Below, one piece after another: positions 3,104 through 33,062 of a DNA stretch of 64,000 nt. The stretch is from Myxococcota bacterium (GTDB lineage: Bacteria > Myxococcota_A > Polyangia > HGW-17). Within the stretch, counting starts at the first letter, position 1. The number at the start of each line of letters is the position of its first letter. Location of the stretch: contig DAIRVS010000004.1 in the NCBI GenBank assembly GCA_036802685.1, forward strand, positions 2,651 through 66,650, given 5' to 3'. The position numbers and the translations under genes were made by a program. A model generated the notes under the pieces. That model had not been told where the DNA came from, did no database searches, and saw nothing but the letters and a program-made list of their open reading frames with translations.

Positions 3104-3175
3104 TTCCCCGGGCATGAACCCTTCGTCGTCATGTGATGGTTCGAACCTCGACTGCGCCGATTCGACTCGACCGGT

Positions 3176-4039
3176 TCACCCCTGGGCGGCGAACTCCGCG
3201 CGGAGCTGGTCCACGCGCTGCCGGAAGCGGGCGGCGGTGGCGCCGTGGATCAGGATGTTGGCCAGGAGGACCTTCTCCTCGGTGGAGGGGTTCCCGTCCT
3301 TGTCCACCACGTCCTGGGTGTGGATCAGGTTGACCACGTGCAGCTCGGCACAGCCCGCGCAGGAGGCCAGTTCGATCTGCAGCGAGGGGGTCGTGCCGGC
3401 CAGCCGCAGGTGGTCCACCCAGACGTCGGAGCCCGCGGCCAGGGCCGTGGCGATGGCCTCCAGCGGGGCCAGGTCGAAGAACATGGCCACCCGCTCGCGC
3501 TCCACCCACTTCTGGCACTTCTCGCAGAACACGCGCTCCTTGAGGAAGGTCCACCACGCGAACACGAAGATCCCGAGGTAGGCGACGGCCTCGACGGCGA
3601 GCAGGAGGCCGTAGAACGTGCCCTTGACCTGGTTGCGCTTGAGCGTGAACCAGCCGACCTTCACCAGCTCCTTCACGAGGTCGATCACATAGGACGGGTC
3701 GGTGAGCATCTTCAGGTATTCCAGTTCATGCCGGGAGATCACGAACAGGAAGGTCACCCAGAACACGAACAGGGTGAGGACGCCGGCGAGCAGCATGGCC
3801 ACCAGGGAGGCGGCCCGGCTGCGGTTGCGCCCCAGGGACTCGCCGAAGACGTAGGCGCCGGCCACCGCGAACACGGCGCCGAAACTGATCAGGAAGTTGA
3901 CGTACACGAACGGGATGTACCGCACGGCGTACGCGTAGACGAACGAGATCGGGAACATGGCGGCAACGGCCAGGGCGAGGCCGAGGCCGACCCCCTTGGG
4001 ATCGAAGGTGCCGGTGGGTCGATAGGTGTGGTCCTGCAT
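3176..4039 (-). CDS. integral membrane protein (about 5 TM helices) with a C-terminal cytoplasmic CxxC...CxxC zinc-ribbon-like domain
   Basis: Hydrophobic segments over the N-terminal 170 aa; CEKCQKW...CAGCAEL pair of CxxC motifs; AGGAGG SD 6 nt upstream of the ATG; strong sigma70-like promoter upstream. Confidence 0.6.
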   Translation of the reverse strand: MQDHTYRPTGTFDPKGVGLGLALAVAAMFPISFVYAYAVRYIPFVYVNFLISFGAVFAVAGAYVFGESLGRNRSRAASLVAMLLAGVLTLFVFWVTFLFVISRHELEYLKMLTDPSYVIDLVKELVKVGWFTLKRNQVKGTFYGLLLAVEAVAYLGIFVFAWWTFLKERVFCEKCQKWVERERVAMFFDLAPLEAIATALAAGSDVWVDHLRLAGTTPSLQIELASCAGCAELHVVNLIHTQDVVDKDGNPSTEEKVLLANILIHGATAARFRQRVDQLRAEFAAQG

Positions 4040-4078
4040 GTACTGTTTCCTCCTGTCGCGCCGGGGGCGCAGGGGAGG

Positions 4079-4107
4079 AATCTATGCAGGACCGGGAAAA
4101 TGGTCAA
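4079..4107 (-). promoter_or_regulatory. sigma70-like promoter for the 3176-4039 gene: -35 TTGACC, 17-nt spacer, -10 TAGAAT
   Basis: Minus-strand reading TTGACC-attttcccggtcctgca-TAGAAT, followed by the AGGAGG SD and the ATG at 4039; sits in a short AT-rich intergenic patch. Confidence 0.45.
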
Positions 4108-4115
4108 TAATATTT

Positions 4116-4676
4116 TTAAGTGGGGATCGAGAGGACGTACCAGCGGCCGCCCACGTTCACCAGGGTGGCCTCGTCCTCGCCGTCGTCGAGCTTCCCGTTG
4201 AACTCGATTTTCATGTAGATCTTGATCCACAGTTCCTCGTCTTTGGATTTCTTGCCCACCAGGCGCACCTCGAGGTACTTCCAGTCCTTCGAGTGGTCGA
4301 GCTTGCGGTTCAGGCGGTCGAGGTCCCCCTTGCCGAAAGCGGGGTTCTTCCCGTCGGCCAGGGCGGCGCGCCAGGCGTCGTCTCCGCGCATCTTCGAGGC
4401 ATAGAAGGACAAGAGCGCACCCTCGGGGGTGTCGAAGCCCGGCGTGAAGCCGGCGGCGGTGGCGGGGGTGAGGGAGGGGGCGTCGACGTAACGTTCCCAG
4501 CCGTCGTCGCCGGGCTCGGTCTTCGGCGGCGTCCAGGCTGCGGCGGTGGGGCCGGGGGGCGTGACGACGGTCGCCTCCCGGGGCGGCGGCGTGTCGTTCT
4601 TCGGGACGTGAGCCTCCTTCTGATTCGTGCAGGCCGCGAGGGCGGGAAACAGGATCCAGAGCAGGACAGATTTCAT
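4116..4676 (-). CDS. lipoprotein of unknown function
   Basis: N-terminus MKSVLLWILFPALAAC carries a lipobox (LAAC); Pro/Thr-rich linker; no recognised catalytic motif. Confidence 0.6.
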   Translation of the reverse strand: MKSVLLWILFPALAACTNQKEAHVPKNDTPPPREATVVTPPGPTAAAWTPPKTEPGDDGWERYVDAPSLTPATAAGFTPGFDTPEGALLSFYASKMRGDDAWRAALADGKNPAFGKGDLDRLNRKLDHSKDWKYLEVRLVGKKSKDEELWIKIYMKIEFNGKLDDGEDEATLVNVGGRWYVLSIPT

Positions 4677-7089: not shown

Positions 7090-7605
7090 ATGCGAGCCCA
7101 CCTCATCCTGATCGCCCTTCTGGCGGCGCTGTCGGCGTCGGGTCCCGGGTGCGCGCGGGTCACCACGAGCACCGTGCGCCCATCCGCCGCGCCGCTGGCC
7201 GCCGGCGCCTTCGTGCTGCTGGTGGTCGACAACCCGTTCCCCTCCCGCGACGGTAGCGAACGGGCGGCGGACGATCTGATCCGGGGTGTGGCGCGCCGGC
7301 TCTCTCGCGCCGGGGTTCAGGTGCGGGTGTCCCGGACCGTCCCGCCCGAGTACGCCGGGCAGCCGTGCGTGGTGCTCCAACTCGAGCGCTTTCGCCACGT
7401 GCGCCCCAAGGACCGCCTGTGGATGGGCGGCCTCGCCGGCCGCGCCGAGCTCGCCGTGCGGGTGCGCGTCTACGACCCCGGGGTGGCCGAGCCCGCCGCC
7501 GAGGCCCTCGTGGACAGCCGGACGGGCACCCACGGCCTCGCGGGCACCGACGACGAGGCCGTCGAGGCGGCAGTCGAGCGGGTCTCCGCGTTCCTGTTGA
7601 AATAG
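7090..7605 (+). CDS. lipoprotein of unknown function
   Basis: MRAHLILIALLAALSASGPGC signal peptide with lipobox; the ORF could start at 7066 instead. Confidence 0.55.
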   Translation: MRAHLILIALLAALSASGPGCARVTTSTVRPSAAPLAAGAFVLLVVDNPFPSRDGSERAADDLIRGVARRLSRAGVQVRVSRTVPPEYAGQPCVVLQLERFRHVRPKDRLWMGGLAGRAELAVRVRVYDPGVAEPAAEALVDSRTGTHGLAGTDDEAVEAAVERVSAFLLK

Positions 7606-7853
7606 CGCCCCAGAATTATTGATATATAGCTCAATATTTTCCCGAATTCACCGCTTGCATCCGGCTTCGCGCGCGGTACAACAAGTGCAGGGACGGCAGA
7701 AACTGTACAAGGTTTTTTGGTAGGTCGCTTTTTGGGTAGGCGCTCGCGTTTTCAGTAGGCCGATGTGGCGTGTTGTAGCGTTCGAGTCCTGGAGTTGTCG
7801 ATTTCCGTCGTACAGCGCCGAAAAGATTCTCCTCCTGCCGTCCCCCTTCTTTT

Positions 7854-23825: not shown

Positions 23826-23846
23826 CAACTTCCCAGGAGTTTGCTC

Positions 23847-24965
23847 ATGAAACGAATGATGACGCTCACCGGGGCCCTCGTCGCGCTGACCGCGCTGACC
23901 GCTTGCGACGACGGCGGCGGTGGCGGCTGGTACTATGACGTCGACTACATCGAGATCACCGACGACCTGCCCGCGCCCGGGAACCCCGCCGGCGCCTGCG
24001 GCGTCCCCGAGGAGGCCCTGCCCGCGGACACCGCCACGCCCACCCGGGTCATCGGCGACGGCACCCCCGCCTCCTGCACCTCCGCGGCCGTGGTGGAGGC
24101 GGTCGCCCAGGGCGGGATCATCACCTTCGACTGCGGCCCCGACCCGGTGACCATCGTCCTCGAACAGACCGCGAAGATCCGCAACGACACGGGCCCCGAG
24201 ATCGTGCTCGACGGCGGCGGGCTGGTGACCCTCTCCGGCGGAGACCGGCGGCGCATTCTTTACATGAACACCTGCGATCCGGACCAGGTCTGGACCACCC
24301 CCCACTGCAACGATCAGGACCACCCGCGGCTCACGGTGCAGAACCTGACCTTTATCGACGGCAACGCCGAGAACGAACCCGCCGAGACCGCCGGGGGCGG
24401 CGCCATCTTCGTGCGCGGCGGCCGCTTCCGCGTGATCAACAGCCGCTTCTTCGGCAACTCCGCGTCCCCCACCGGCCCCGACGTGGGCGGCGGCGCCATC
24501 CGCGTGTTCGACCAGTTCGAGGACCGGCCCGTGTACGTGGTGCACAGCACGTTCGGCGGCCGCGAGGACCTGGCCAACGTCGCCTCCAACGGCGGCGCGG
24601 TGTCCTCCATCGGCGTGAACTGGACCATCCTCAACAGCGTGCTCTCGTACAACCGGGCCATCGGGAACGGCGGGAACCCGGCCGAGGCGGGCACCCCCGG
24701 CGGCGGCTCCGGCGGCGCGATCTACAACGACGGGAACACCCTCACGCTCACGCTGTGCGGCGTGGCCATCGAGCACAACGAGGTCAACGCCTACGGCGCG
24801 GCCATCTTCTTCGTGAGCAACAACCACGACGGCACGATCCACATCGACGACTCGGTGATTCGGAACAACGTCAACCACTCGAACCACCCCTGGCAGATCC
24901 TCCCGGGCATCTCCGGCCACGACGACACGGTGCTGGACGTCGACGACGACTCGATCATCGAGTGA
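23847..24965 (+). CDS. lipoprotein with a right-handed parallel beta-helix (pectate-lyase-like) fold
   Basis: Lipobox LTAC; repeated GG/N-rich beta-helix rungs (GGGAIFVRGG, GGGAIRVF, NGGAVSSIG, GGSGGAIYNDGN); CCAGGAG SD upstream of the ATG at 23847. Confidence 0.6.
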   Translation: MKRMMTLTGALVALTALTACDDGGGGGWYYDVDYIEITDDLPAPGNPAGACGVPEEALPADTATPTRVIGDGTPASCTSAAVVEAVAQGGIITFDCGPDPVTIVLEQTAKIRNDTGPEIVLDGGGLVTLSGGDRRRILYMNTCDPDQVWTTPHCNDQDHPRLTVQNLTFIDGNAENEPAETAGGGAIFVRGGRFRVINSRFFGNSASPTGPDVGGGAIRVFDQFEDRPVYVVHSTFGGREDLANVASNGGAVSSIGVNWTILNSVLSYNRAIGNGGNPAEAGTPGGGSGGAIYNDGNTLTLTLCGVAIEHNEVNAYGAAIFFVSNNHDGTIHIDDSVIRNNVNHSNHPWQILPGISGHDDTVLDVDDDSIIE

Positions 24966-24988
24966 GCGCGTCCGGCGAGCTCACGGCT

Positions 24989-25047
24989 CCCCCCGTAGCC
25001 TGGCGACCGAGGACGGTCGCTTGGCTACAGGGGGCTAGTTTCTTTGG
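24989..25047 (+). terminator. intrinsic terminator: long GC-rich hairpin (CCCCCGTAGCCTGGCGACC...GGTCGCTTGGCTACAGGGGG) followed by a T-rich tract
   Basis: Inverted repeat read directly from the sequence in the convergent gap between the 23847-24965 and 25065-26102 genes; followed by CTAGTTTCTTTGG. Confidence 0.6.
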
Positions 25048-25064
25048 AAAGACATCCACCGAAC

Positions 25065-26102
25065 TTAAAAATCCAATAGTTCTGAAACCAATCGCCGTTG
25101 TTCGATGACACGCAGGCAGTAGGCGTTCTCGCCGAAGGCGCCGGTGTTGGCCGCGGCCATGGCCGTGCAGCCCCCGCGGCAGGTCTCGGCGAAGGCGCAG
25201 GCATCACACGCGCCGGTGAGGTGGCGGCGCTTGTTCCGGAAGCGCTCGAAGCGCGCGTCGTCGTTCCAGAGCTCGGCGAGCGGCGTCTCGCGCAGGTTGC
25301 CCACGATGAACTCGTCCCCCAGCGACAGGCACGGGAGCACCGCGCCGTCCGAGCGGATCCCGATGACCGCGATCCCGGCCATGCAGCCGGGGAAGCGCGC
25401 GTGGTAGGTCGCAAGGTGCCCGGAGAGCGGGTGGTAGCCGAAGTCGTCCATCGGGCACAGCCACAGGTCCGGGTCGTGCTCGAGGTGCCAGGTGACCTTC
25501 TCGCAGAAGGTGGCGAACTCGTCCACCGAGAGCGACCAGTCGCCGGTGAAGCGATCGCCGCCGGGGTTGGCGATCTGCACCTGCCAGGTGATCCCCGAGG
25601 CGCGGAAACGGTCGGCCAGCGCGTCGAACTCGTGGAAGTTCAACCGGCAGAACGTGGTGATGGCGTTGACCCGGGGGTGTCCGGTGGCCACCAGATCGCG
25701 CAACAGCCCCATCACCCGGTCGTGGCCGTCGACGCGGCGCATGGCCCGCACGGTCTCGGGGGTGGCGCCGTCCAGGGACACCCCGATGATCCACGGGTCG
25801 AGCGCGACGAGGGTGTGAAGGACCTGCGGCGTGACCAGGAGGCCGTGGGTGATCAGCACCGGCCGCAGCCCGTGGTCCTTCACCGCCCGGGCCACGGTCT
25901 CCCACCCCGGGAACAGCAGCACCTCGCCGCCGATGAGGGTCAACTCCTCGCACCCGAGCGCGGCCAGCTCGCCCACGAGGCGCACCCAGTCGTCGGTGCC
26001 GTACTCCCCGGCCCGCGGTGGCCCCGAGTTCGACGAGCAGTGCACGCACCGCAGGTTGCAGCGGTTGGTGAGCTCACAGACGGCGTATCTGATCGGGTTC
26101 AT
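25065..26102 (-). CDS. radical SAM/SPASM-domain enzyme, second maturase-like gene of the pair
   Basis: CNLRCVHC (CxxxCxxC) rSAM cluster near the N-terminus; C-terminal SPASM Cys pattern (CLSLGD...GACDACAFAETCRGGC); start overlaps the upstream stop (ATGA). Confidence 0.85.
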   Translation of the reverse strand: MNPIRYAVCELTNRCNLRCVHCSSNSGPPRAGEYGTDDWVRLVGELAALGCEELTLIGGEVLLFPGWETVARAVKDHGLRPVLITHGLLVTPQVLHTLVALDPWIIGVSLDGATPETVRAMRRVDGHDRVMGLLRDLVATGHPRVNAITTFCRLNFHEFDALADRFRASGITWQVQIANPGGDRFTGDWSLSVDEFATFCEKVTWHLEHDPDLWLCPMDDFGYHPLSGHLATYHARFPGCMAGIAVIGIRSDGAVLPCLSLGDEFIVGNLRETPLAELWNDDARFERFRNKRRHLTGACDACAFAETCRGGCTAMAAANTGAFGENAYCLRVIEQRRLVSELLDF

Positions 26103-27253
26103 GTGGGATCTAGCAGGGCGGCGGTGATCGCCCGGGTCTCCAGGCGGTGGTGGCAATACTCGTTCTCGAAACGGTCGCGGCAGACGGTGAGCAGGATGTC
26201 CGGGCAGCCGCCGTGGCAGACGCCGGCGTGGGGGCACGAGGCGCAGGCGCCGCGCAGGTTCTTCGCGTGGCACCAGGCCAGGTTGTCCCGGCAGCGCTCC
26301 TCGTCGAGGATGCGCGAGAGGCCGCCGGGGTCGCGGACGTTGCCCACCACGTTCTCGGGGAGCGCCAGCGCCGAGCAGGGGGTCACGTCGCCGTTGGCGC
26401 GCACGAACAGGTTCAAAATCCCGCCGGTGCAGCGCTTTTGCCAGGTGCGATGCAGAAGCGAGAGCGGGTGGCGGTTCGAGGGTGTCACCAGGTCGTCCAT
26501 GGGCACGATCCGATGCGGGTGGGCGGCGAAGATCGCGGCGACCCGCTCGCCCAGCGCGTGGTACTCCTCGGGGGAGAGCAGGATCCCGCGCGGGGTGCGG
26601 CCCTTGCCCGAGACCATCTGCACCTGCAGGCCGAAGCCCCGGGCGCGGGCGAAGTCCCAGAGCCCTTCGAGCTGGTCCAGGTTGAGCCGGGAGAAGGCGG
26701 CGATCAGGCTCACCTGCAGGCCGGCGGCGGTGAGCGCGTCGAGGCCGGCGAGGGTCTTCGCGTGGCTGCCCGGGCCGCGGACGGCGTCATGCACGGCCGG
26801 GTCCACGCCGTCGAGGCTCACGGTGACGAGCAGGATCCCGGCCTCGCGCCAGGCGCGGGCGATCGCGGGCGTGACGAGCGTGCCGTTGGTCACGAGGCGC
26901 ACCGGGAAGCCGGCCTCCCGGCCCGCGGCGATCACGTCCATCAGGTCCGGGCGGCAGCAGACCTCGCCGCCGGTGAGGGAGAGCTCGAGCATGCCGGCCG
27001 CGCGGGCGTCGCGCAGCACGTCCCGGATCTCCGCGAGCGTGAGCTCGTCGGGGCAGGCCCGGGGCGCGTCCACGTAGCAGTGGGGGCAGGCGAGGTTGCA
27101 GGCCCAGGTGATCTCGAGCTCGAGGATGTAGGGGTGGCGGTAGGTGAACTCGCGGGGCGTCTTGTCAGCCGGGTCACCGGACTTGAAGTACCGGAACGTG
27201 TCGCCGTCGCGGCGCACCCGGATGCCGTCGTGGGCCGAAGGACGCTCGGTCAT
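26099..27253 (-). CDS. radical SAM/SPASM-domain enzyme, first maturase-like gene of the pair
   Basis: CNLACPHC rSAM motif; SPASM/twitch cysteines (CTGGILNLF...PCSALAL...CASCPHAGVCHGGC); TGATG overlap with the upstream repeat-protein gene. Confidence 0.85.
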   Translation of the reverse strand: MTERPSAHDGIRVRRDGDTFRYFKSGDPADKTPREFTYRHPYILELEITWACNLACPHCYVDAPRACPDELTLAEIRDVLRDARAAGMLELSLTGGEVCCRPDLMDVIAAGREAGFPVRLVTNGTLVTPAIARAWREAGILLVTVSLDGVDPAVHDAVRGPGSHAKTLAGLDALTAAGLQVSLIAAFSRLNLDQLEGLWDFARARGFGLQVQMVSGKGRTPRGILLSPEEYHALGERVAAIFAAHPHRIVPMDDLVTPSNRHPLSLLHRTWQKRCTGGILNLFVRANGDVTPCSALALPENVVGNVRDPGGLSRILDEERCRDNLAWCHAKNLRGACASCPHAGVCHGGCPDILLTVCRDRFENEYCHHRLETRAITAALLDPT

Positions 27254-27975
27254 CAGAGATCGGTGCTGCGCACGCCGCCGCCGTAGCGGGGCATGGCGCC
27301 GTACTTGAGCGCGGGGGGCCGCATGGGCGTGGGTTTCATCTCCGGGGCCATCTCGCCTTCCTCCTCCTCCGCGTCGGGAGAGGGGGCGGGGGGCCGGACG
27401 CCGGCGCTGTAGCGGTGCTTGGAGTAGACCTCGTCGTCCATGGGGGCCGGGGGCGGGTCGTCGGTCTTCATCTCCGGCTCGGGTTCGACGTCGACGGGGG
27501 GCCGGACGCCGGCGCTGTAGCGGTGCTTGGAGTACACCTCGTCGTCCATGGGCACGACGCCGGTCGGCGTGGCGTCCTTGGTGGCCGGCTCGGTGGTCGT
27601 CGGGGTCGTGGGCACGGGGGCGTCGGGCTTGACGGCCGTGGTGCCCTCCTGCTTGCCGTTGGAGCAGGCGGCGCCCGAGAGGGCGACGGTGGCGGCCACG
27701 GCGACGGCGGTGCCCGAGAAGCGCTGCGCCAAGGTCCACAGGCGCACGAGTCGCGGCGAGGTCTCGGTCTCCATGCGGTCCCGGAAGGCGGCGTACACCC
27801 CCGAGAAGGTGCGGCGGTCCCCGGCCATGAGCGCGCACAGGCCGTGCTGCAGTTGGGCCTCGGCGTTGGCGGGCTCGAGGTCGGCGGCGCGGCCGAACCA
27901 CTCCCGGGCCTCGGCGAGGCGGCCGGCGGCCAGCGCGGCGCGGCCCTGTTCGATGCAATGGGTGGCTTCGTTCAT
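27253..27975 (-). CDS. TPR-like N-terminus, single TM/anchor, and Pro-rich C-terminal region with tandem repeats (2x PMDDEVYSKHRYSAGVRPP plus a degenerate third) - candidate substrate of the adjacent rSAM enzymes
   Basis: GAGGAGG SD; protein repeats are mirrored by a 108-nt-period DNA repeat (27393-27553) with a single mismatch; C-terminal ...PALKYGAMPRYGGGVRSTDL. Confidence 0.6.
   Translation of the reverse strand: MNEATHCIEQGRAALAAGRLAEAREWFGRAADLEPANAEAQLQHGLCALMAGDRRTFSGVYAAFRDRMETETSPRLVRLWTLAQRFSGTAVAVAATVALSGAACSNGKQEGTTAVKPDAPVPTTPTTTEPATKDATPTGVVPMDDEVYSKHRYSAGVRPPVDVEPEPEMKTDDPPPAPMDDEVYSKHRYSAGVRPPAPSPDAEEEEGEMAPEMKPTPMRPPALKYGAMPRYGGGVRSTDL
27393..27553. repeat. intragenic direct repeat: two ~57-nt near-identical copies 108 nt apart, encoding the PMDDEVYSKHRYSAGVRPP units
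   Basis: gccggacgccggcgctgtagcggtgcttggagta[g/c]acctcgtcgtccatggg occurs at ~27393 and ~27501. Confidence 0.85.
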
Positions 27976-27994
27976 GGGAACCTCCTCGCGATGG

Positions 27995-28507
27995 TCACAA
28001 CTTGTCCATCACGCGCTCGCAAAGGTCGGTGACGCGCGGATCCTGATACTTCATGGGCAGCGTCTGGCAGCGGATGCGCAGCACCCGGGGCATGTACGGC
28101 TTGCGACCGTCGGCCAGGGACTCGAGGATGCGCGTGAGCAGCCGCAGCACGGTGGGCAGGTGGCTGATCTCCAGGGCGCGCTCGCAGAACTCCATGTCCG
28201 AGGGGACCTTCTCGTGTTCGTCGAGGATGCGGCGGGCCTCCTTGAGGAACTCGGAGGGCTCCTCGAGGCGCAGGCACTTCTTCACCTGGGCGGCGACGCT
28301 GCCGTCCGACGGGCTCTCGATCTTCTTCTCGCCCTCGGCCTTGCGGATCATGTCGCCCAGCTTGGACGAGTTGAACAACTTCTCGACGTCGGACTTGCTC
28401 ACGCGCATGCCGCTGCCGCGCGGGGCGGGCTTCTCGTCCTTCTTCCCGCGGCCCGAGGAGCGGTCGCGCTTGGCGTCGATCTCCTTCCAGGTGGGTTTGT
28501 CGGCCAT
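27995..28507 (-). CDS. hypothetical protein (Lys/Glu-rich N-terminus)
   Basis: 170-aa ORF tightly spaced in the operon (2 nt after the upstream stop); no recognised motif. Confidence 0.55.
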   Translation of the reverse strand: MADKPTWKEIDAKRDRSSGRGKKDEKPAPRGSGMRVSKSDVEKLFNSSKLGDMIRKAEGEKKIESPSDGSVAAQVKKCLRLEEPSEFLKEARRILDEHEKVPSDMEFCERALEISHLPTVLRLLTRILESLADGRKPYMPRVLRIRCQTLPMKYQDPRVTDLCERVMDKL

Positions 28508-28509
28508 CG

Positions 28510-29073
28510 TCAGCCCTCGGCGCTCTGCGGCGCCCCGTGCAGCACGAGCACCGCCTGGTAGACCTCCTGGTTCAGCGCCACGGCGACGTCCTCGGGGACC
28601 TCGAAGCGGCGCGCCATCTCCCGGGCGAACTCGGGGTGCAGGAAGTTCTGGTTGAGCACGAAGTGGAAGACCGCGCGGCGGTACAGGTACTGCCGCACGC
28701 CGGCGCGCAGCTCGTCCACGCGGGCGGCGGGCAGCACGCCCGAGGTGAGCTTCTCGAGCAGGGTCTTCTCGTCGTCCGAGAACTCCTCGTCGGCGTACGC
28801 GGTCATGAACAGGAAGGCCGTGAAGCAGTCGCGGGCGGCGTCGGTGGAGAGCGCCTGCAGGTCGCCGTCCGACAGGGGGCGGTACTCGGCCAGGAGCGCG
28901 GAGAAGTTCTCGCCGGGGAAGAACTCGCCGACGACCTGCTGCAGGTACTCCCGCTCCCGGGGGTCCATCTCGCCGTCGGCCTGGGCGACCTGCACGAGCC
29001 CGCGGAAGATGGTCGTCTTGTCGGCGGGGGTCAGCGTGGTGTCACGCAGGATGGGTTCCAGTTCCAAAGCCAT
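28510..29073 (-). CDS. TerB-like (tellurite-resistance TerB / DjlA N-terminal-like) domain protein
   Basis: Paired helical acidic motifs (ADKTTIFRGLVQVAQADGEMDPREREYL..., DDEKTLLEKL) typical of the TerB fold. Confidence 0.5.
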   Translation of the reverse strand: MALELEPILRDTTLTPADKTTIFRGLVQVAQADGEMDPREREYLQQVVGEFFPGENFSALLAEYRPLSDGDLQALSTDAARDCFTAFLFMTAYADEEFSDDEKTLLEKLTSGVLPAARVDELRAGVRQYLYRRAVFHFVLNQNFLHPEFAREMARRFEVPEDVAVALNQEVYQAVLVLHGAPQSAEG

Positions 29074-29076
29074 GAT

Positions 29077-29406
29077 TCACCTCTTTTCCTCGATTTTCTT
29101 CAGGTACTCCTGGAGGAGCTTCAACTCCTTCATGCCCACGGAGTTGAACTTGATCCCCATCTCGTTCTCGGGAGCGGGCTTGAACCAGGCGACCTCGCCC
29201 TTGAGCTCGATGGCGGCGTCCAGGTCCGGGAAGGTGATCACCAGGTCCACCTGCGCGCCCACCGGCTCGGGCTCGGAGGTGGCCAGACGCAGGCCGCCCA
29301 GACTCAGATCGTAGATGCGGTGGTTGAGCAGGAACTCGCGGCCCGTGTAGTCGACGAAGGCTTCCAACTCGAATCGTTTGTGACGGCGCTTGTCCTTGGA
29401 GGTCAT
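29077..29406 (-). CDS. PilZ-domain protein (c-di-GMP-binding motifs present)
   Basis: RRHKR (RxxxR) and DLSLGG (DxSxGG) PilZ signature motifs; start taken at MTSKDK (the ORF extends to 29493). Confidence 0.7.
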   Translation of the reverse strand: MTSKDKRRHKRFELEAFVDYTGREFLLNHRIYDLSLGGLRLATSEPEPVGAQVDLVITFPDLDAAIELKGEVAWFKPAPENEMGIKFNSVGMKELKLLQEYLKKIEEKR

Positions 29407-29464
29407 CAGGTGGCGGCCCTTTCCCGAAGGTTCGGTGACTGCACGGGGTGCAAAACCGTCCACC

Positions 29465-29493
29465 AGCGTAAAAGAGCGGTGCGGTCCCGTCAA
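29465..29493 (-). promoter_or_regulatory. possible promoter of the PilZ-to-rSAM operon: -35 TTGACG, 17-nt spacer, -10 TACGCT
   Basis: Minus-strand TTGACGggaccgcaccgctctttTACGCT about 55 nt upstream of the PilZ ATG. Confidence 0.3.
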
Positions 29494-29538
29494 GTTGAAA
29501 AATGCGCGCGCGTGGGAGCGTGAAGGGGCGTTCGTCGA

Positions 29539-30303
29539 TTATTTGCCGGCGGCGGGCTTGTCCTCGCCGGCCTGGAGCACCTGGACCCCCTTGGGCGGCG
29601 TGAAGACGAACTTCTTGTCGTCGATGGGCTTGTTCATGGTGATCTCGGAGAAGGTGATCTGGTTCTTGTTGCCCTCGTGGTCGTAGACCAGGCTGGACAC
29701 GACGGCGCCCGCGGCGTCCACCACGAACATGACGATCTTGAAGTGCGGCGAGCGCTTCTTGGGCAGCAGTTTCAGGGCCTTCTGACCGGGGCCGGCGAAC
29801 TTGGAGTTGGGCACGATCTTGACGTGGAACTCGTCGGTGAGCTTGCCCTGGCCCCACAGGAACTTCACCGGCGTGGGCAGCGCGGAGTCCTTCACGTCGC
29901 GCCACAGCGCCTGCTTGCTGCTGGGCTCGTACATCCAGGCCTTCTTGCCGTCGATGAGGAACATCTTCTTGTCCGGCGCCAGGTAGTCCCACAGCATGAA
30001 GCCCGGCTTCTTGATGTAGATCACGCCGCTCTCGGCGGGCTGGTCCCCGTGGAACTTTTTGGAGAAGACCTGCTTGAACTTCGCCTGAAACGTGTTGATT
30101 TTGTTGTAATAATTCTGAGTCACCGCGATGGCGGCCAGGGCGTCGGGGAGGTTGTAGGTCTTCAGATCCTCCTCGGGCTCGGCGGGCTTGGCCGGCGTGG
30201 GCGCCGGGGGCGTCGTCGGCTTGGCGGCCGGCGGGGTGACCGGCTTGGGCGGAACCTGCGCCAGGGGGGCGAACAACAGGACGAGCGAGATCAGGGTGTG
30301 CAT
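29539..30303 (-). CDS. LolA-like outer-membrane lipoprotein carrier
   Basis: Signal peptide, Pro-rich linker, then a LolA-fold-like region (KINTFQAKFKQ...YIKKPGFMLWDY...GKKAWMYEP). Confidence 0.6.
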   Translation of the reverse strand: MHTLISLVLLFAPLAQVPPKPVTPPAAKPTTPPAPTPAKPAEPEEDLKTYNLPDALAAIAVTQNYYNKINTFQAKFKQVFSKKFHGDQPAESGVIYIKKPGFMLWDYLAPDKKMFLIDGKKAWMYEPSSKQALWRDVKDSALPTPVKFLWGQGKLTDEFHVKIVPNSKFAGPGQKALKLLPKKRSPHFKIVMFVVDAAGAVVSSLVYDHEGNKNQITFSEITMNKPIDDKKFVFTPPKGVQVLQAGEDKPAAGK

Positions 30304-30550
30304 GAAAGTCTCCTGCCTTGGGACCGGGCGCGGCGCGCTCCGGCACGGTCCATACGCCGGCCGGGGCCCCGGTATTCACCGCGCGCCGCGAACCTAGCAC
30401 GGGGGCGACCCCGGCGGCAACGGACAACGACACCCCGCCGCGGGAAATTTCCCAGGTCCGCGGAGGCTTGCATTTTTCCCCGTGCATCCCCTGAGAAATG
30501 ATGTATCTTGACGAGCATTTCGGGGCGACGCGGTCGCCCGGGAGGTCACG

Positions 30551-31222
30551 ATGACGCGACATTTCCTGTGGTGCCTGTGCCTGGTGGGCGCGGTGGTCGC
30601 CTGTGACGCGAGTCCGGCTGAAGAAAATAATGATAATTTGAACAATGTAAATAATGTAAATAATATTAATAATCTCAATAATATTAACAATTTAAATAAT
30701 ACAAATAATTTGAATAATATAAATAATATTAACAACACCAACAACACGACCCGCATCCCTCCGAACCAGAACAAGACCGAAGCCCAGGCGCTGGCGCAAC
30801 TGTTCCCCGGTGCCACCTCCGAGGTCGCCACCAGCGCCAGCGGGAACTATTATGTGCTGCGCGACGGCGCCCAGACGGTGGTGGGCTACGGCCTGACCGC
30901 CACCCATTACGGCTTCAACGCCCAGATCACCACCCTGCTCGGGGTCTCGGCCGACGGCGTCACCGTGGGCCTCGAGACCATCAACCAGCGCGAGAGCTGG
31001 TGGTCGTTCGTCCCCGAGAGCTGGTTCACGGAGTTCACCGGGGTCGACACCGCCGCGATCACGCTGCTGCCCGGCTACGACGAGAACTGCTATCGCTGCA
31101 CCGCCCTGTACGACGCCCTCGGCGTGGACGCCGTCTCGGGCGCCACCTACACCTCCGACGCCCTGATCAAGGACGCCATGGACGGTTATCTGCACTGGTC
31201 CGAGGTGGTCCCGGCCGAGTAG
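30551..31222 (+). CDS. FMN-binding-domain lipoprotein with an N-terminal Asn-rich (NNxNN) linker
   Basis: Lipobox VVAC; C-terminal DAVSGATYTS matches the FMN_bind covalent-attachment motif; 30613-30760 encodes a poly-Asn tract using AT-ending codons. Confidence 0.65.
   Translation: MTRHFLWCLCLVGAVVACDASPAEENNDNLNNVNNVNNINNLNNINNLNNTNNLNNINNINNTNNTTRIPPNQNKTEAQALAQLFPGATSEVATSASGNYYVLRDGAQTVVGYGLTATHYGFNAQITTLLGVSADGVTVGLETINQRESWWSFVPESWFTEFTGVDTAAITLLPGYDENCYRCTALYDALGVDAVSGATYTSDALIKDAMDGYLHWSEVVPAE
30613..30760. repeat. AT-rich low-complexity codon tract (AAT/AAC repeats) encoding NNDNLNNVNNVNNINNLNNINNLNNTNNLNNINNINNTNNTT
   Basis: Seen directly in the sequence; local GC about 20% against about 70% background. 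Confidence 0.9.
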
Positions 31223-31271: not shown

Positions 31272-31300
31272 TTGACATCGGTCGGGTGGAACTTATACCT
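31272..31300 (+). promoter_or_regulatory. sigma70-like promoter of the arsR-family/redox operon: -35 TTGACA, 16-17-nt spacer, -10 TATACC
   Basis: TTGACAtcggtcgggtggaacTTATACC about 50 nt upstream of the GGGAGG SD and the ATG at 31350. Confidence 0.4.
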
Positions 31301-31307
31301 TCTGCGA

Positions 31308-31329
31308 CATATATCGATTTCGGTATATG
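31308..31329. promoter_or_regulatory. 22-bp imperfect palindrome CATATATCGATTTCGGTATATG, candidate ArsR-family operator
   Basis: 18/22 self-complementary positions; lies between the -10 and the SD of the ArsR-family gene. Confidence 0.45.
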
Positions 31330-31349
31330 AAAACCCGGGAGGCCCCGTC

Positions 31350-31712
31350 ATGCAGCCCAGCTTCGAACCCGAAACCGCCGCCGCCGTCGCCGCCGTGCTC
31401 TCCAATCCCGTCCGGCTCCGGCTGGTGGAACGGCTCCTCGCCGGCCCGTGCATCGTCGGCGACCTGGTGGAGGCCACCGGGCTCGGCCAGGCGGTGGTGT
31501 CCAAGCAACTGGGGTTGCTGAGGGCCGCCGGGCTCCTCGCCTGCGCCCCCCAGGGCCGTTGTCGGGAGTATCGCCTGGCCAGCCCCGGGGACGCGGCCGC
31601 GCTCGTGGCGGCGCTGGGCGGCTTGGCCAAGGCCTGCGCGGCCAACCTGCGTGACTGTCCGAAACAGGCCGTCCGGTCGCCCCGGACGGATGAGAAACGC
31701 ATCCGGCAATAA
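31350..31712 (+). CDS. ArsR/SmtB-family winged-helix transcriptional regulator
   Basis: HTH region VGDLVEATGLGQAVVSKQLGLLRAAGLL; small (120-aa) regulator at the head of the redox gene set. Confidence 0.75.
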   Translation: MQPSFEPETAAAVAAVLSNPVRLRLVERLLAGPCIVGDLVEATGLGQAVVSKQLGLLRAAGLLACAPQGRCREYRLASPGDAAALVAALGGLAKACAANLRDCPKQAVRSPRTDEKRIRQ

Positions 31713-31724
31713 GGAGGTATCGTC

Positions 31725-32366
31725 ATGATCCAGATCATCAAGAATTATTCCCAACTCGTCACCGAATCCGACCACCTGAAGGGGCCGCTGGTCATCGGCT
31801 TCTTCGGGGATTTTTCCCAGGGCGCCAAGGAGACGCTCCCCGCGTTCAAGGCGTTCTGCGAAAAGCACCCGCGGTGGCCGGCCTATCTTGTGGACGTGGG
31901 GCGCGTCCGGGACGTGCATGGGCGCTTCCAGGTGGCCCAGGTGCCGGCCGTCATCCTCGTGGAGAACGGCGTCGTGAAGAAGCGCCTGGTGGGCTCGGCC
32001 ACGGCCGCCGCCTATGAGGCCGCCTTCGTGGGTGGCGAGGCTCCAGGCGCGGGGTCCTCCGGCGTCGGCGCGGCCCCGTCGGCCGCCTCGGAGAAGGCCG
32101 CGCGGCCCGCCCGTTCGGTCACCGTGTTCACCACCCAGAGCTGCCCGTGGTGCGTGCGGGTGAAGAACTACCTGCGGCAGCACAACGTGAGCTTCAAGGA
32201 GGTCGACGTGGGCCGCGACCCGCAGGCCGCCCGCGAGCTGGTGCGGCGCACCGGGCAGACCGGCGTGCCCCAACTGGACATCAACGGATCCTACGTGGTG
32301 GGGTTCGACCAGGCGAAGATCGACCGGCTGCTGGGCCTTGCGGGCCCTGCCTCGGCGATGAACTGA
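31725..32366 (+). CDS. thioredoxin-fold N-terminal domain fused to a glutaredoxin-like (CPWC, YruB/NrdH-like) domain
   Basis: C-terminal VTVFTTQSCPWCVRVKNYL...GVPQLDINGSYVVGFD glutaredoxin-like motifs. Confidence 0.7.
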   Translation: MIQIIKNYSQLVTESDHLKGPLVIGFFGDFSQGAKETLPAFKAFCEKHPRWPAYLVDVGRVRDVHGRFQVAQVPAVILVENGVVKKRLVGSATAAAYEAAFVGGEAPGAGSSGVGAAPSAASEKAARPARSVTVFTTQSCPWCVRVKNYLRQHNVSFKEVDVGRDPQAARELVRRTGQTGVPQLDINGSYVVGFDQAKIDRLLGLAGPASAMN

Positions 32367-32388
32367 AGGAAAAGAAGGAGAGGGACAT

Positions 32389-32680
32389 GAAGATCGTGCC
32401 GTTGAACGAACAGGTGTTGCTGCGTCCGGTGAAGGACGAACCCGCCCCCGGTGGCCTGGTGCTGCCGGAGTCCGTGCGGGAGGACGGTGATCTCGCCGAG
32501 GTCGTGGCGATCTCGCCGCTGGTGGTGAACGCCGATCTGGCGGTGGGAGATCGCGTCCTCGTGCGCCGGTTCTCGGGGACCGGGCTCGAGTGGGAAGGGG
32601 AAAAACTGCGCTTCGTGGCCGCGGGGGATCTGCTGGCCAAGCGGGTGGAGGCCGACGCCATCCCGGGCGCAGGAGACTGA
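32389..32680 (+). CDS. GroES/Cpn10-like co-chaperonin-fold protein (standalone, no adjacent groEL)
   Basis: MKIVPLNEQVLLRPV...PGGLVLPES mobile-loop-like segment; 97 aa; GAAGGAGAGGG SD. Confidence 0.6.
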
Positions 32681-32714
32681 TCGGAATGACTTTCGAAAGA
32701 AGAGAGGTGAAATC

Positions 32715-33062
32715 ATGTTGCAGACGAAACTCGAACACATCCAGACGACAAAACAGTATCAGGAGCTCGTGGAGAGCGGAAAGAAATTCGCCGTGGTCTG
32801 CGGCCGCATGGGACCCATGTGCATCCCGGTCTACGACGTCATGGACAACCTGAAATCGAAGTACCCGGACGTGACCTTCCTTGACATGGAGTTCGACGCA
32901 CCGGTGGCCGCCGAGACGATCCGGCGCCTGCCCGAGACGCGCTCGTTCTCCGGGCTCCCCTTCACGGTGTACTTCCGCGACAAGCAGGTGGTCGCCGCCA
33001 CCTCCAGCATCCAGACCAAGCAGCAGGTGAAGGAGATCCTGGACGCGAAACTCAAGGACTGA
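32715..33062 (+). CDS. thioredoxin-like protein with an atypical C-x6-C (CGRMGPMC) active-site region
   Basis: Trx-fold length and pattern (FAVVCGRMGPMCIPV...) but not the canonical WCGPC. Confidence 0.6.
   Translation: MLQTKLEHIQTTKQYQELVESGKKFAVVCGRMGPMCIPVYDVMDNLKSKYPDVTFLDMEFDAPVAAETIRRLPETRSFSGLPFTVYFRDKQVVAATSSIQTKQQVKEILDAKLKD

Follow-up and report, generated by a model that had tools for sequence, protein, structure and literature searches.

We identified, on the minus strand of a 64,000-nucleotide stretch of DNA from a Myxococcota bacterium (contig DAIRVS010000004.1, positions 2,651 to 66,650; "the window"), a cassette of six genes that ends in two radical S-adenosylmethionine (rSAM) enzymes with SPASM domains, here called rSAM-A and rSAM-B. 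Their sequences and genomic surroundings point with reasonable probability to an undescribed maturation system, in which the paired enzymes would modify a motif of the adjoining protein before that protein is exported. The adjoining protein, of 240 amino acids (aa), is the probable substrate. Because neither enzyme belongs to a known family and a motif-bearing protein is their constant neighbor, in distant as well as close loci, this assignment is well supported by comparative genomics; a preliminary description of the same DNA had already put the 240-aa protein forward as the substrate candidate. The six genes, in the order of transcription, are as follows.

29077..29406, minus strand: PilZ-domain protein, 109 aa; first of the six genes; PF07238 match; lineage-specific accessory
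28510..29073, minus strand: TerB-like protein, 187 aa; partial PF05099 match; lineage-specific accessory
27995..28507, minus strand: 170-aa protein; ARM/HEAT-like fold; cassette-specific accessory
27253..27975, minus strand: putative substrate protein, 240 aa; tetratricopeptide repeat (TPR)-like domain, signal-like segment and disordered motif tail
26099..27253, minus strand: rSAM-A, 384 aa; Radical_SAM and full SPASM
25065..26102, minus strand: rSAM-B, 345 aa; Radical_SAM and full SPASM

All six open reading frames (ORFs) are present at coordinates 25065-29406 by direct reading of the sequence, and they are as closely packed as the preliminary description had stated. The gaps are 3 nt from the PilZ stop to the TerB-like start, 2 nt from the TerB-like stop to the start of the 170-aa gene, and 19 nt, with a GAGGAGG Shine-Dalgarno sequence, from the stop of the 170-aa gene to the start of the 240-aa gene. 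The last three genes are joined as first described: the 240-aa gene and rSAM-A share a TGATG junction (1-nt overlap), and rSAM-A and rSAM-B share an ATGA junction (4-nt overlap). Gene overlaps also occur in other loci, by their coordinates. Such overlaps point to translational coupling, which we count in favor of a maturation cassette.

The enzyme pair and its constant neighbor

Both enzymes were searched against the profiles of Pfam and of NCBIfam release 20, the NCBIfam results being the 25 best matches per enzyme. Pfam finds Radical_SAM (PF04055, E 4e-21 and 2e-24) and SPASM (PF13186, E 1e-12 and 7e-6) in both, with all Pfam cut-offs exceeded, and rSAM-B also lies above the cut-off of TIGR04085 (54.5 vs 27 bits). 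The radical SAM/SPASM pattern was taken as CxxxCxxC plus the 7-Cys array C-x9-15-G-x4-C ... C-x2-C-x5-C-x3-C ... C. The preliminary description had credited both enzymes with the cluster motif and a complete C-terminal array, and every motif was located. In rSAM-A the cysteines are C52x3C56x2C59; C275...G-x4-C293; C337x2C340x5C346x3C350; and C367, and in rSAM-B they are C15x3C19x2C22; C240...G-x4-C258; C299x2C302x5C308x3C312; and C329. The set is invariant among 28 relatives of rSAM-A. The two enzymes are paralogues with 33% identity. A conserved N-terminal extension of ~45 residues, with no domain of the size of a RiPP (ribosomally made peptide with modifications added after translation) recognition element (RRE), is present in rSAM-A, and the N-terminus of rSAM-B begins directly at the cluster motif.

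Among solved structures, the nearest are those of the peptide-modifying enzymes SkfB and PqqE (E ~1e-12 to 1e-16). Neither enzyme reaches the cut-off of any curated family, a placement that the preliminary description had proposed checking by profile search. The top NCBIfam families give 132-141 bits, where 265-725 would be required. The match of rSAM-B to nif11_3 gives 141 bits (cut-off 725), and MftC (TIGR03962) gives 132.4 bits with rSAM-A and 109.5 bits with rSAM-B (cut-off 265). Further scores are those of AhbD (123 and 132 bits) and NirJ2 (109 and 116 bits), each with a cut-off of 500; PqqE (TIGR02109; 98.9 and 79.1 bits, cut-off 381); WgkB (78 and 101 bits, cut-off 650); TIGR04133 (95 bits with rSAM-B and 58 bits with rSAM-A, cut-off 425); DynA (NF041298; 70.2 bits with rSAM-A, cut-off 450); and anSME (TIGR03942; 47.7 bits with rSAM-B, cut-off 349), for which the rSAM-A match falls outside the 25 best. 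HxsB/HxsC, GRRM and QhpD are outside the 25 best matches, the 25th being at 47 and 58 bits. Close relatives of the enzymes are named by their sources merely "radical SAM protein". A reading of the block as a defense system was discarded: PADLOC gives a weak, generic viperin-type similarity (45-56 bits, two full viperin models) and no match for the four non-rSAM proteins of the six-gene block.

The rSAM-A family is sharply delimited. It comprises ~95 clusters with 41-91% identity and E <=1e-79, beyond which the matches drop to <=35% identity and E ~1e-37, among proteins that their sources name MftC (32-35%). We inspected nine loci outside the lineage of the window (L015, L017, L019 and L101-L106), and rSAM-A is followed by rSAM-B in all nine. 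The carriers, where named, are Polyangiaceae, Planctomycetes, Phycisphaerae and Desulfuromonadaceae, the others being metagenome contigs. The distant enzymes share 45-54% (A-type) and 44-48% (B-type) identity with their orthologues in the window, as against ~30% between A and B, and the two types are separately orthologous across all loci.

The preliminary description had made its proposal depend on homologues of the enzyme pair co-occurring with a repeat-bearing neighbor, and a motif-bearing neighbor accompanies them in 9/9 distant loci and in all close loci. The substrate gene lies directly upstream of rSAM-A in eight of the distant loci and directly downstream in L105, where the TPR/lipobox substrate gene 3' of rSAM-B (7210-7716, plus strand) is ended by the contig edge before any motif. 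The distant neighbors share one plan, consisting of a TPR-like domain of ~85-110 residues ending in RLW, an uncharged segment of 13-20 residues, and a low-complexity tail with the motif. No protease, exporter or transporter, or other recurring gene is conserved in the nine distant neighborhoods. The six-gene system of the preliminary description must accordingly be narrowed: the six-gene block is real in the lineage of the window, but the conserved core consists of three genes.

Additional family members came from a profile search with the substrate. Run against representative sequences, this profile gave 1,324 matches, mostly generic multi-TPR proteins, with family members only among the short single-stretch matches. 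A match from the genome scan, L014, was rejected on similar grounds, as it covers the TPR part only and belongs to a multi-TPR protein near TolQ/ExbD-like genes and without rSAM genes. A metagenome scan with the rSAM-A alignment, through the generic patterns CNLxCxHCY and NGDVTPCSA, yielded 80 loci (L021-L100) with <=39% identity, none with the motif; they serve as a negative control.

The putative substrate and its motif

The features of the 240-aa protein are listed here; A1 denotes the alignment of its close homologues.

27721..27975, minus strand: TPR-like helical domain, residues 1-85 (AlphaFold2 and Foldseek); predicted cytoplasmic; proposed docking or "leader" domain
27664..27720, minus strand: uncharged segment, residues 86-104, ending AATVALSGAAC; proposed internal Sec/lipoprotein signal or signal-anchor
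27495..27552, minus strand: repeat copy 1, encoding PMDDEVYSKHRYSAGVRPP; core motif S149-V157 at 27505-27531
27387..27444, minus strand: repeat copy 2; 98% DNA identity to copy 1; core motif S185-V193 at 27397-27423
27261..27318, minus strand: degenerate C-terminal copy, PPALKYGAMPRYGGGVRST; 62% DNA identity to the reference copy; conserved in A1

The preliminary description had reported tandem repeats of 19 aa in this protein. Two near-identical copies with a unit of 58 nt and a third, diverged copy are indeed present, but the true unit is a motif of nine residues. Its consensus, S-x-H-[R/K]-Y-S-[G/A]-G-[V/I], is drawn from 43 instances in 25 proteins, with 1-4 copies per tail. The search pattern itself required His0 and Tyr+2. 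Ser+3 and Gly+5 are found in all 43 instances despite the alternatives that the pattern allowed, and Ser-2 in 42 of them; position 1 is Arg (36) or Lys (7), and position 6 is Val (41) or Ile (2). The sequence around the motif is unalignable. Within the lineage of the window the 15-mer EVYSKHRYSAGVRPP is invariant, in one or two copies, while the proteins that carry it share 41-87% identity (A1). In six-frame translations of all fetched loci, H-[RK]-Y-S-[GA]-G is confined to the substrate genes of related loci, and it is missing from all 80 unrelated rSAM loci fetched. The occurrence of the motif is thus beyond chance.

The degenerate copy belongs to a second conserved element, MKPTPMRPPAxKYG...RYGGG, which is partly invariant in the lineage. 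Two variant relatives, P0175 and P0271, have the same TPR-like domain and lipobox without HRYSGG; in its place there are repeats of an RPxxxKYG or PRYA type. Such repeats are similar to the conserved C-terminal MRPPALKYGAMPRYGGGVR of the window protein (27253-27345) and may be a second modification site.

Close homologues of the 240-aa protein form ten clusters (at 90% identity, among 5.8 billion proteins). No NCBIfam model matches the window copy or seven distant relatives, and the Pfam TPR matches of the 240-aa protein are all below threshold (TPR_2, for example, at 21.3 bits with a cut-off of 27). AlphaFold2, run on a ten-sequence alignment, predicts five helices at the N-terminus, with predicted local distance difference test (pLDDT) values of 90-95 over residues 1-80, falling to 79 over residues 81-90. 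Beyond this domain the protein, including the motif region, is predicted to be disordered (pLDDT 38-56, and below 55 in the motif region). The matches among the best 50 of a Foldseek search of the Protein Data Bank (PDB) are TPR or TPR-derived proteins, with weak E values (>=0.016), and the profile built from the substrate family also catches many multi-TPR proteins. Residues A23, F27, A40, L42, L49, F57, L79 and W80 are invariant across phyla. A mis-called start, by which the protein would be an ordinary lipoprotein beginning near M68, was considered and rejected, the N-terminal 85 residues being conserved across phyla and confidently folded. Of the "TPR/TM protein" of the preliminary description, the TPR-like part is kept as a predicted fold, but the "TM" part is an uncharged stretch of 13-20 residues ending in a lipobox-type Cys.

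This Cys, C104 in the window protein, is invariant in A1. The residue pattern of PROSITE PS51257 for lipoprotein signals is {DERK}(6)-[LIVMFWSTAG](2)-[LIVMFYSTAGCQ]-[AGS]-C, and the accompanying position rule places the Cys ~15-35 residues from the N-terminus, after a short positive n-region. The residue pattern fits 23 of the 29 family members, with the Cys at residues 98-129, and in the window it is represented by AATVALSGAAC, ending at C104. Lys and Arg residues around the hydrophobic segment number 75 on its N-terminal side and 30 on its C-terminal side (21 sequences). In appearance the segment is closer to an internal signal of the lipoprotein type than to a simple membrane anchor. In the member from a Planctomycetes metagenome contig (L015, 6033-7004, plus strand), ExbD/TolR domains lie between two HRYSGGV motifs (Pfam E 1.9e-17, two matched stretches). 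ExbD/TolR is a periplasmic domain type; the motifs can therefore flank folded envelope domains, as they do in this protein. Taken together, the charge bias, the lipobox pattern and the ExbD/TolR domains speak for a cytoplasmic N-terminal domain and an exported motif tail. Export of the tail seems to us moderately probable.

Accessory and flanking genes

The first three genes of the block encode accessory proteins. The PilZ protein matches PF07238 (E 4.6e-16, 59.5 bits, cut-off 22.5) and has both binding motifs, RxxxR at R7-R11 (RRHKR) and D-x-S-x-x-G at D33-G38 (DLSLGG); by its sequence it is of the canonical cyclic di-GMP (c-di-GMP) receptor type. The TerB-like protein matches PF05099 (E 1.9e-9, 38.2 bits vs 24.4) over residues 14-49 only, corresponding to profile positions 69-104 of 118, and has no NCBIfam match. 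Identities with the counterparts in L001, L003 and L004 are 79-92% for PilZ and 60-76% for the TerB-like protein. The 170-aa protein has no Pfam match. It opens with an invariant stretch, MADKPxWxEIDAxRDR, continues with a basic disordered region and carries ARM/HEAT-like helical repeats at about residues 70-170; it is probably a peptide- or protein-binding adaptor. We considered it as a possible RRE and rejected this identity, given that its fold is an ARM/HEAT-like solenoid and not a winged helix. It occurs in 12 clusters, and the three longest of its carrier contigs match substrate-gene contigs in size.

A scan of 185,579 species genomes, with two peptide patterns from the substrate alignment, found seven with a true relative of the substrate. 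All seven are uncultured Myxococcota metagenome-assembled genomes (MAGs) labelled Haliangium, Kofleriaceae, "Deltaproteobacteria" or Myxococcota. The order PilZ, TerB-like, 170-aa, substrate, rSAM-A, rSAM-B is kept in every close locus examined. In L003 the six-gene block is intact with different flanks (a WYL gene and not LolA upstream, and other genes downstream). None of the nine distant loci contains the PilZ, TerB-like or 170-aa gene. This trio is a lineage-specific add-on of a few uncultured Haliangiales/Kofleriaceae-like Myxococcota, and in them it is always linked to the core.

The PilZ start was placed at the ATG at 29406, in agreement with homologues that are uniformly 109 aa long; the longer TTG ORF (to 29493) is out of line with them. 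A sequence 5' of PilZ, TTGACG-N17-TACGCT at 29493-29465, was picked out by eye and fits at 8/12 positions only, and we do not claim it as a promoter. The promoter and terminator scan gave no prediction on the minus strand. Across 24800-30600, Rfam gave no match at E <=1 and there is no tRNA.

A LolA gene (29539-30303, minus strand; TIGR00547 127.5 bits, cut-off 112) lies 132 nt upstream of PilZ. Its position is kept in L001, L002, L004 and L005, and is taken by the WYL gene in L003. The placement of LolA beside a putative lipoprotein substrate is suggestive, and may be plain synteny. Farther out, at 30633-30735 (plus strand), within the ORF 30551-31222, is a nearly pure A/T tandem array of ~100 nt with a period of 9/18/45, whose translation is the Asn-rich linker (NNLNNVNNVNNINNLNN...) of a lipoprotein-like protein with an FMN_bind domain. 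The local GC content around the array is ~0.59-0.60, vs ~68% for the genome. Divergently upstream of LolA and the cassette, at 31272-33062 (plus strand), is a redox/chaperone set with an ArsR-type helix-turn-helix protein and a thioredoxin-glutaredoxin fusion; two more ORFs of this set, one GroES-like and the other again thioredoxin-like, are identified only by analogy with L004 and L005. The layout of the set is the same in those two loci, so synteny extends past the cassette only in close relatives.

On the other side lies a convergent ORF of 374 aa (23841-24965, plus strand), its end 100 nt away from rSAM-B. Pfam gives no match for its product, which begins like a lipoprotein (LTALTAC) and contains repeated segments of the GGGAI/NGGA type. 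Among the distant loci, L105 has a lipoprotein-type sulfatase gene upstream (3156-4487, plus strand) and L015 has a gene for an FGE-sulfatase-domain protein nearby. These sulfatase-type neighbors are probably a coincidence.

Relation to known systems and proposed mechanism

Keyword searches of the literature found no description of this cassette. The motif strings HRYSGG, RYSGGV, SHRYSG and HKYSGG have no occurrence in the searched literature, and HRYSAG matched surnames only. The substrate and the 170-aa protein are without a model in Pfam and NCBIfam, and so, at the family level, are both enzymes. The system is of a known kind, the maturation of a neighboring precursor by rSAM/SPASM enzymes. 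Its unusual features are the obligate paired paralogues, the folded TPR-like "leader" before an internal lipoprotein-type signal, the lack of a dedicated protease or exporter, and the PilZ/TerB-like/ARM-like module in one Myxococcota lineage.

By score the nearest characterized relative is MftC (132 bits for rSAM-A, with 32-35% identity to proteins named MftC by their sources), and PqqE is among the nearest solved structures to both enzymes. The C-terminus of MftA is GVY, and many distant members have a G-V-Y after the motif that is reminiscent of it. However, the MftC and PqqE cut-offs of 265 and 381 are not reached, and there is no MftA/MftB-like ORF or set of PqqA-D genes nearby. Because the motif is internal and repeated, and V-Y has become V-R in the lineage of the window, C-terminal decarboxylation of the MftC type is inapplicable.

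The His-Xaa-Ser system is made up of HxsA, the rSAM pair HxsB/HxsC and HxsD, and has in common with our loci an rSAM/SPASM pair and a repeat-bearing, His/Ser-rich substrate. It differs in that the motif described here is a dispersed S-x-H-[RK]-Y-S-[GA]-G-[VI] rather than a tandem H-x-S, and in that there is no HxsD-like gene. The anSME enzymes are cytoplasmic rSAM/SPASM enzymes that modify a short motif in a full-length sulfatase before Sec export. The cytoplasmic maturation of a full-length protein before export would be shared, but the substrate candidate has neither a sulfatase domain nor a C/S-x-P/A-x-R motif. The preliminary description had judged that the repeat was not an obvious member of either group, and the defining features of both are indeed lacking. 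TIGR04133 ("rSAM_w_lipo") describes an rSAM/SPASM enzyme encoded beside a small lipoprotein. The genetic pairing of enzyme and lipoprotein is similar, but TIGR04133 is a single-enzyme system, and the scores of 95 and 58 bits are under its cut-off of 425.

Another comparison is with the cyclophane maturases (XyeB/FxsB/OscB, RrrB and DynA/DarE), which likewise combine rSAM and SPASM domains and are encoded beside a precursor with short, often repeated aromatic motifs. Such rSAM enzymes form C-C, C-O and C-N cyclophane links in motifs of 3-5 residues, repeated motifs included, and RrrB links Arg-Cdelta to Tyr-C3 (PMC11851443). The motif described here offers H-[RK]-Y and [RK]-Y, without Cys. None of the cyclophane models comes near its cut-off, and those other than DynA and WgkB are outside the 25 best matches. 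In contrast to the cyclophane systems, two obligate paralogous enzymes are present and a protease or exporter is not, and the substrate, in place of a short leader-core peptide, is a protein of 160-320 aa that combines a folded TPR-like domain with an internal signal-like segment. Triceptides are defined by a three-residue aromatic-X-X pattern in which the aromatic ring is linked to C-beta of residue 3. In sequence, H-[RK]-Y and Y-S-[GA] both fit aromatic-X-X, but no triceptide-family model comes near its cut-off.

For the order of modification and export, a parallel is provided by the bufferins, RiPP precursors that undergo modification in the cytoplasm and then leave it by the general Sec pathway, some of them protein-sized (PMC12452194). 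About 16% of the Buf2 members are predicted lipoproteins (PMC12452194). Signal peptides have been called highly unusual for RiPPs, and the problem of premature export has been discussed for the bufferins (PMC12452194). The bufferin enzymes differ, being MNIO/DUF692 proteins with a DUF2063 partner that act on Cys-based motifs, and the bufferin signal peptide is N-terminal, whereas ~85 folded residues come first in the protein described here.

Several observations weigh against a maturation system of this kind. No RRE or PqqD-like domain is recognizable in the enzymes or in any gene of the cassette. The AhbD/NirJ-type scores are comparable to those of peptide maturases, and with tetrapyrrole enzymes matching so well, similarity alone does not settle the class of substrate. 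The motif is without Cys, which excludes the thioether chemistry that is best known for SPASM enzymes, and the chemistry is not deducible from the sequence. The topology is awkward: with motifs predicted to be extracytoplasmic and enzymes cytoplasmic, the modification would have to precede export. The lipobox-type Cys stands ~100 residues into the chain, behind a folded domain of ~85 residues, and so breaks the position rule for lipoprotein signals, for which reason lipidation and cleavage of the tail at this Cys are proposed only tentatively. Among the family members that depart from the residue pattern, four have the Cys with an atypical -2 residue and two (L015 and L102) have no Cys. Lastly, the carriers seen are all uncultured MAGs.

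The similarity scores and the missing RRE would also suit a different explanation, in which the two enzymes work on some small molecule or cofactor (tetrapyrrole-like, as with AhbD and NirJ) and the TPR/motif protein serves as a membrane scaffold or carrier. We consider this very improbable. Equal in strength to the peptide-maturase scores as they are, the AhbD and NirJ2 scores are far under the 500-bit cut-offs; conserved biosynthetic genes, for tetrapyrroles or otherwise, are lacking in every neighborhood examined; and the sole invariant partner is a protein in which, apart from the N-terminal domain, nothing is conserved but a short repeated motif within disordered sequence, as expected of a peptide substrate. 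The motif could instead stay unmodified and serve in binding or sorting, with a metal, the cell wall or a partner protein as its target and the enzymes modifying another site or protein, for instance a third party recruited by the TPR-like domain. Residues such as His, Tyr, Ser and Lys/Arg typically act as ligands or contacts, and the ExbD/TolR domains of the Planctomycete member suggest a role in envelope interactions. A plain binding motif, however, leaves the strict coupling to two rSAM/SPASM enzymes across phyla unexplained, and the loci hold no other conserved candidate substrate. This alternative is quite improbable.

A further question concerns the six-gene block only. The trio could be a separate signaling or stress unit that merely shares a transcript, or synteny, with the core, an explanation compatible with maturation by the core genes. 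The core occurs without the trio in 9/9 distant loci, and none of the three proteins is an enzyme or a known RiPP accessory. Against such independence, the 170-aa protein is limited to 12 clusters, with a gene of ~170 aa in that slot at every cassette locus examined; the genes lie 2-19 nt apart in the window, and in relatives they overlap or are separated by short gaps; the block persists in L003, where both flanks change; and the accessories are better conserved than the substrate (60-92% vs 41-60% identity between the window and L001, L003 and L004). We regard a separate unit as rather unlikely. The tight linkage of the trio to the core makes a regulatory link to c-di-GMP plausible, and actual control of the system by c-di-GMP is doubtful at present.

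We propose the following mechanism for a maturation system built on the three-gene core. The TPR-like domain of ~85 residues would stay in the cytoplasm and dock the enzymes in the role of a leader; it is proposed as the dock because no RRE exists. The uncharged segment with its lipobox-type Cys would send the rest of the chain across the membrane, and the disordered Pro/Glu/Thr-rich tail would carry its 1-4 target motifs. Each paralogue would abstract a hydrogen atom within the motif by means of a 5'-deoxyadenosyl radical and introduce one modification. The motif being Cys-free and invariant, one or two uncharacterized reactions are very likely involved. The most plausible products are cross-links in which the invariant His or Tyr, or both, take part; a three-residue His-x-Tyr cyclophane and a Lys/Arg-Tyr link are examples. 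A cross-link on His/Tyr is possible, and short of probable; epimerization, Ser oxidation or a protein-derived cofactor may be the outcome instead. Modification would come first and translocation of the tail after it, followed in most members, perhaps, by lipidation and cleavage at the Cys. As no dedicated protease or exporter is conserved, we assign these steps to the general Sec/Lgt/Lsp machinery. In the lineage of the window, the PilZ/TerB-like/ARM-HEAT-like trio might couple or gate maturation to c-di-GMP or envelope stress.

A bolder proposal, which we consider unlikely, is that the system makes a new envelope molecule. This would be a lipid-anchored, disordered periplasmic polypeptide whose motifs have been turned into His/Tyr cross-links or into a redox or metal-binding cofactor. 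The TPR-like domain would be a new type of leader that holds the chain and is removed by signal peptidase II, so that a dedicated protease or exporter would be unnecessary, and the trio would gate the process by c-di-GMP in one Myxococcota lineage.

The rSAM/SPASM maturases are a main source of new peptide chemistry, having given the PQQ and mycofactocin cofactors and the antibiotic darobactin. The family described here is sharply bounded and has members in at least three groups of phylum level (Myxococcota, Planctomycetota and Desulfuromonadaceae). The architecture of the substrate is unusual too; should it be confirmed, it would add to recent evidence of modified peptides that travel by the general Sec pathway, and would provide a clean system in which to study the timing of modification before export. 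The linkage to PilZ would represent a rare case of second-messenger control of post-translational maturation.

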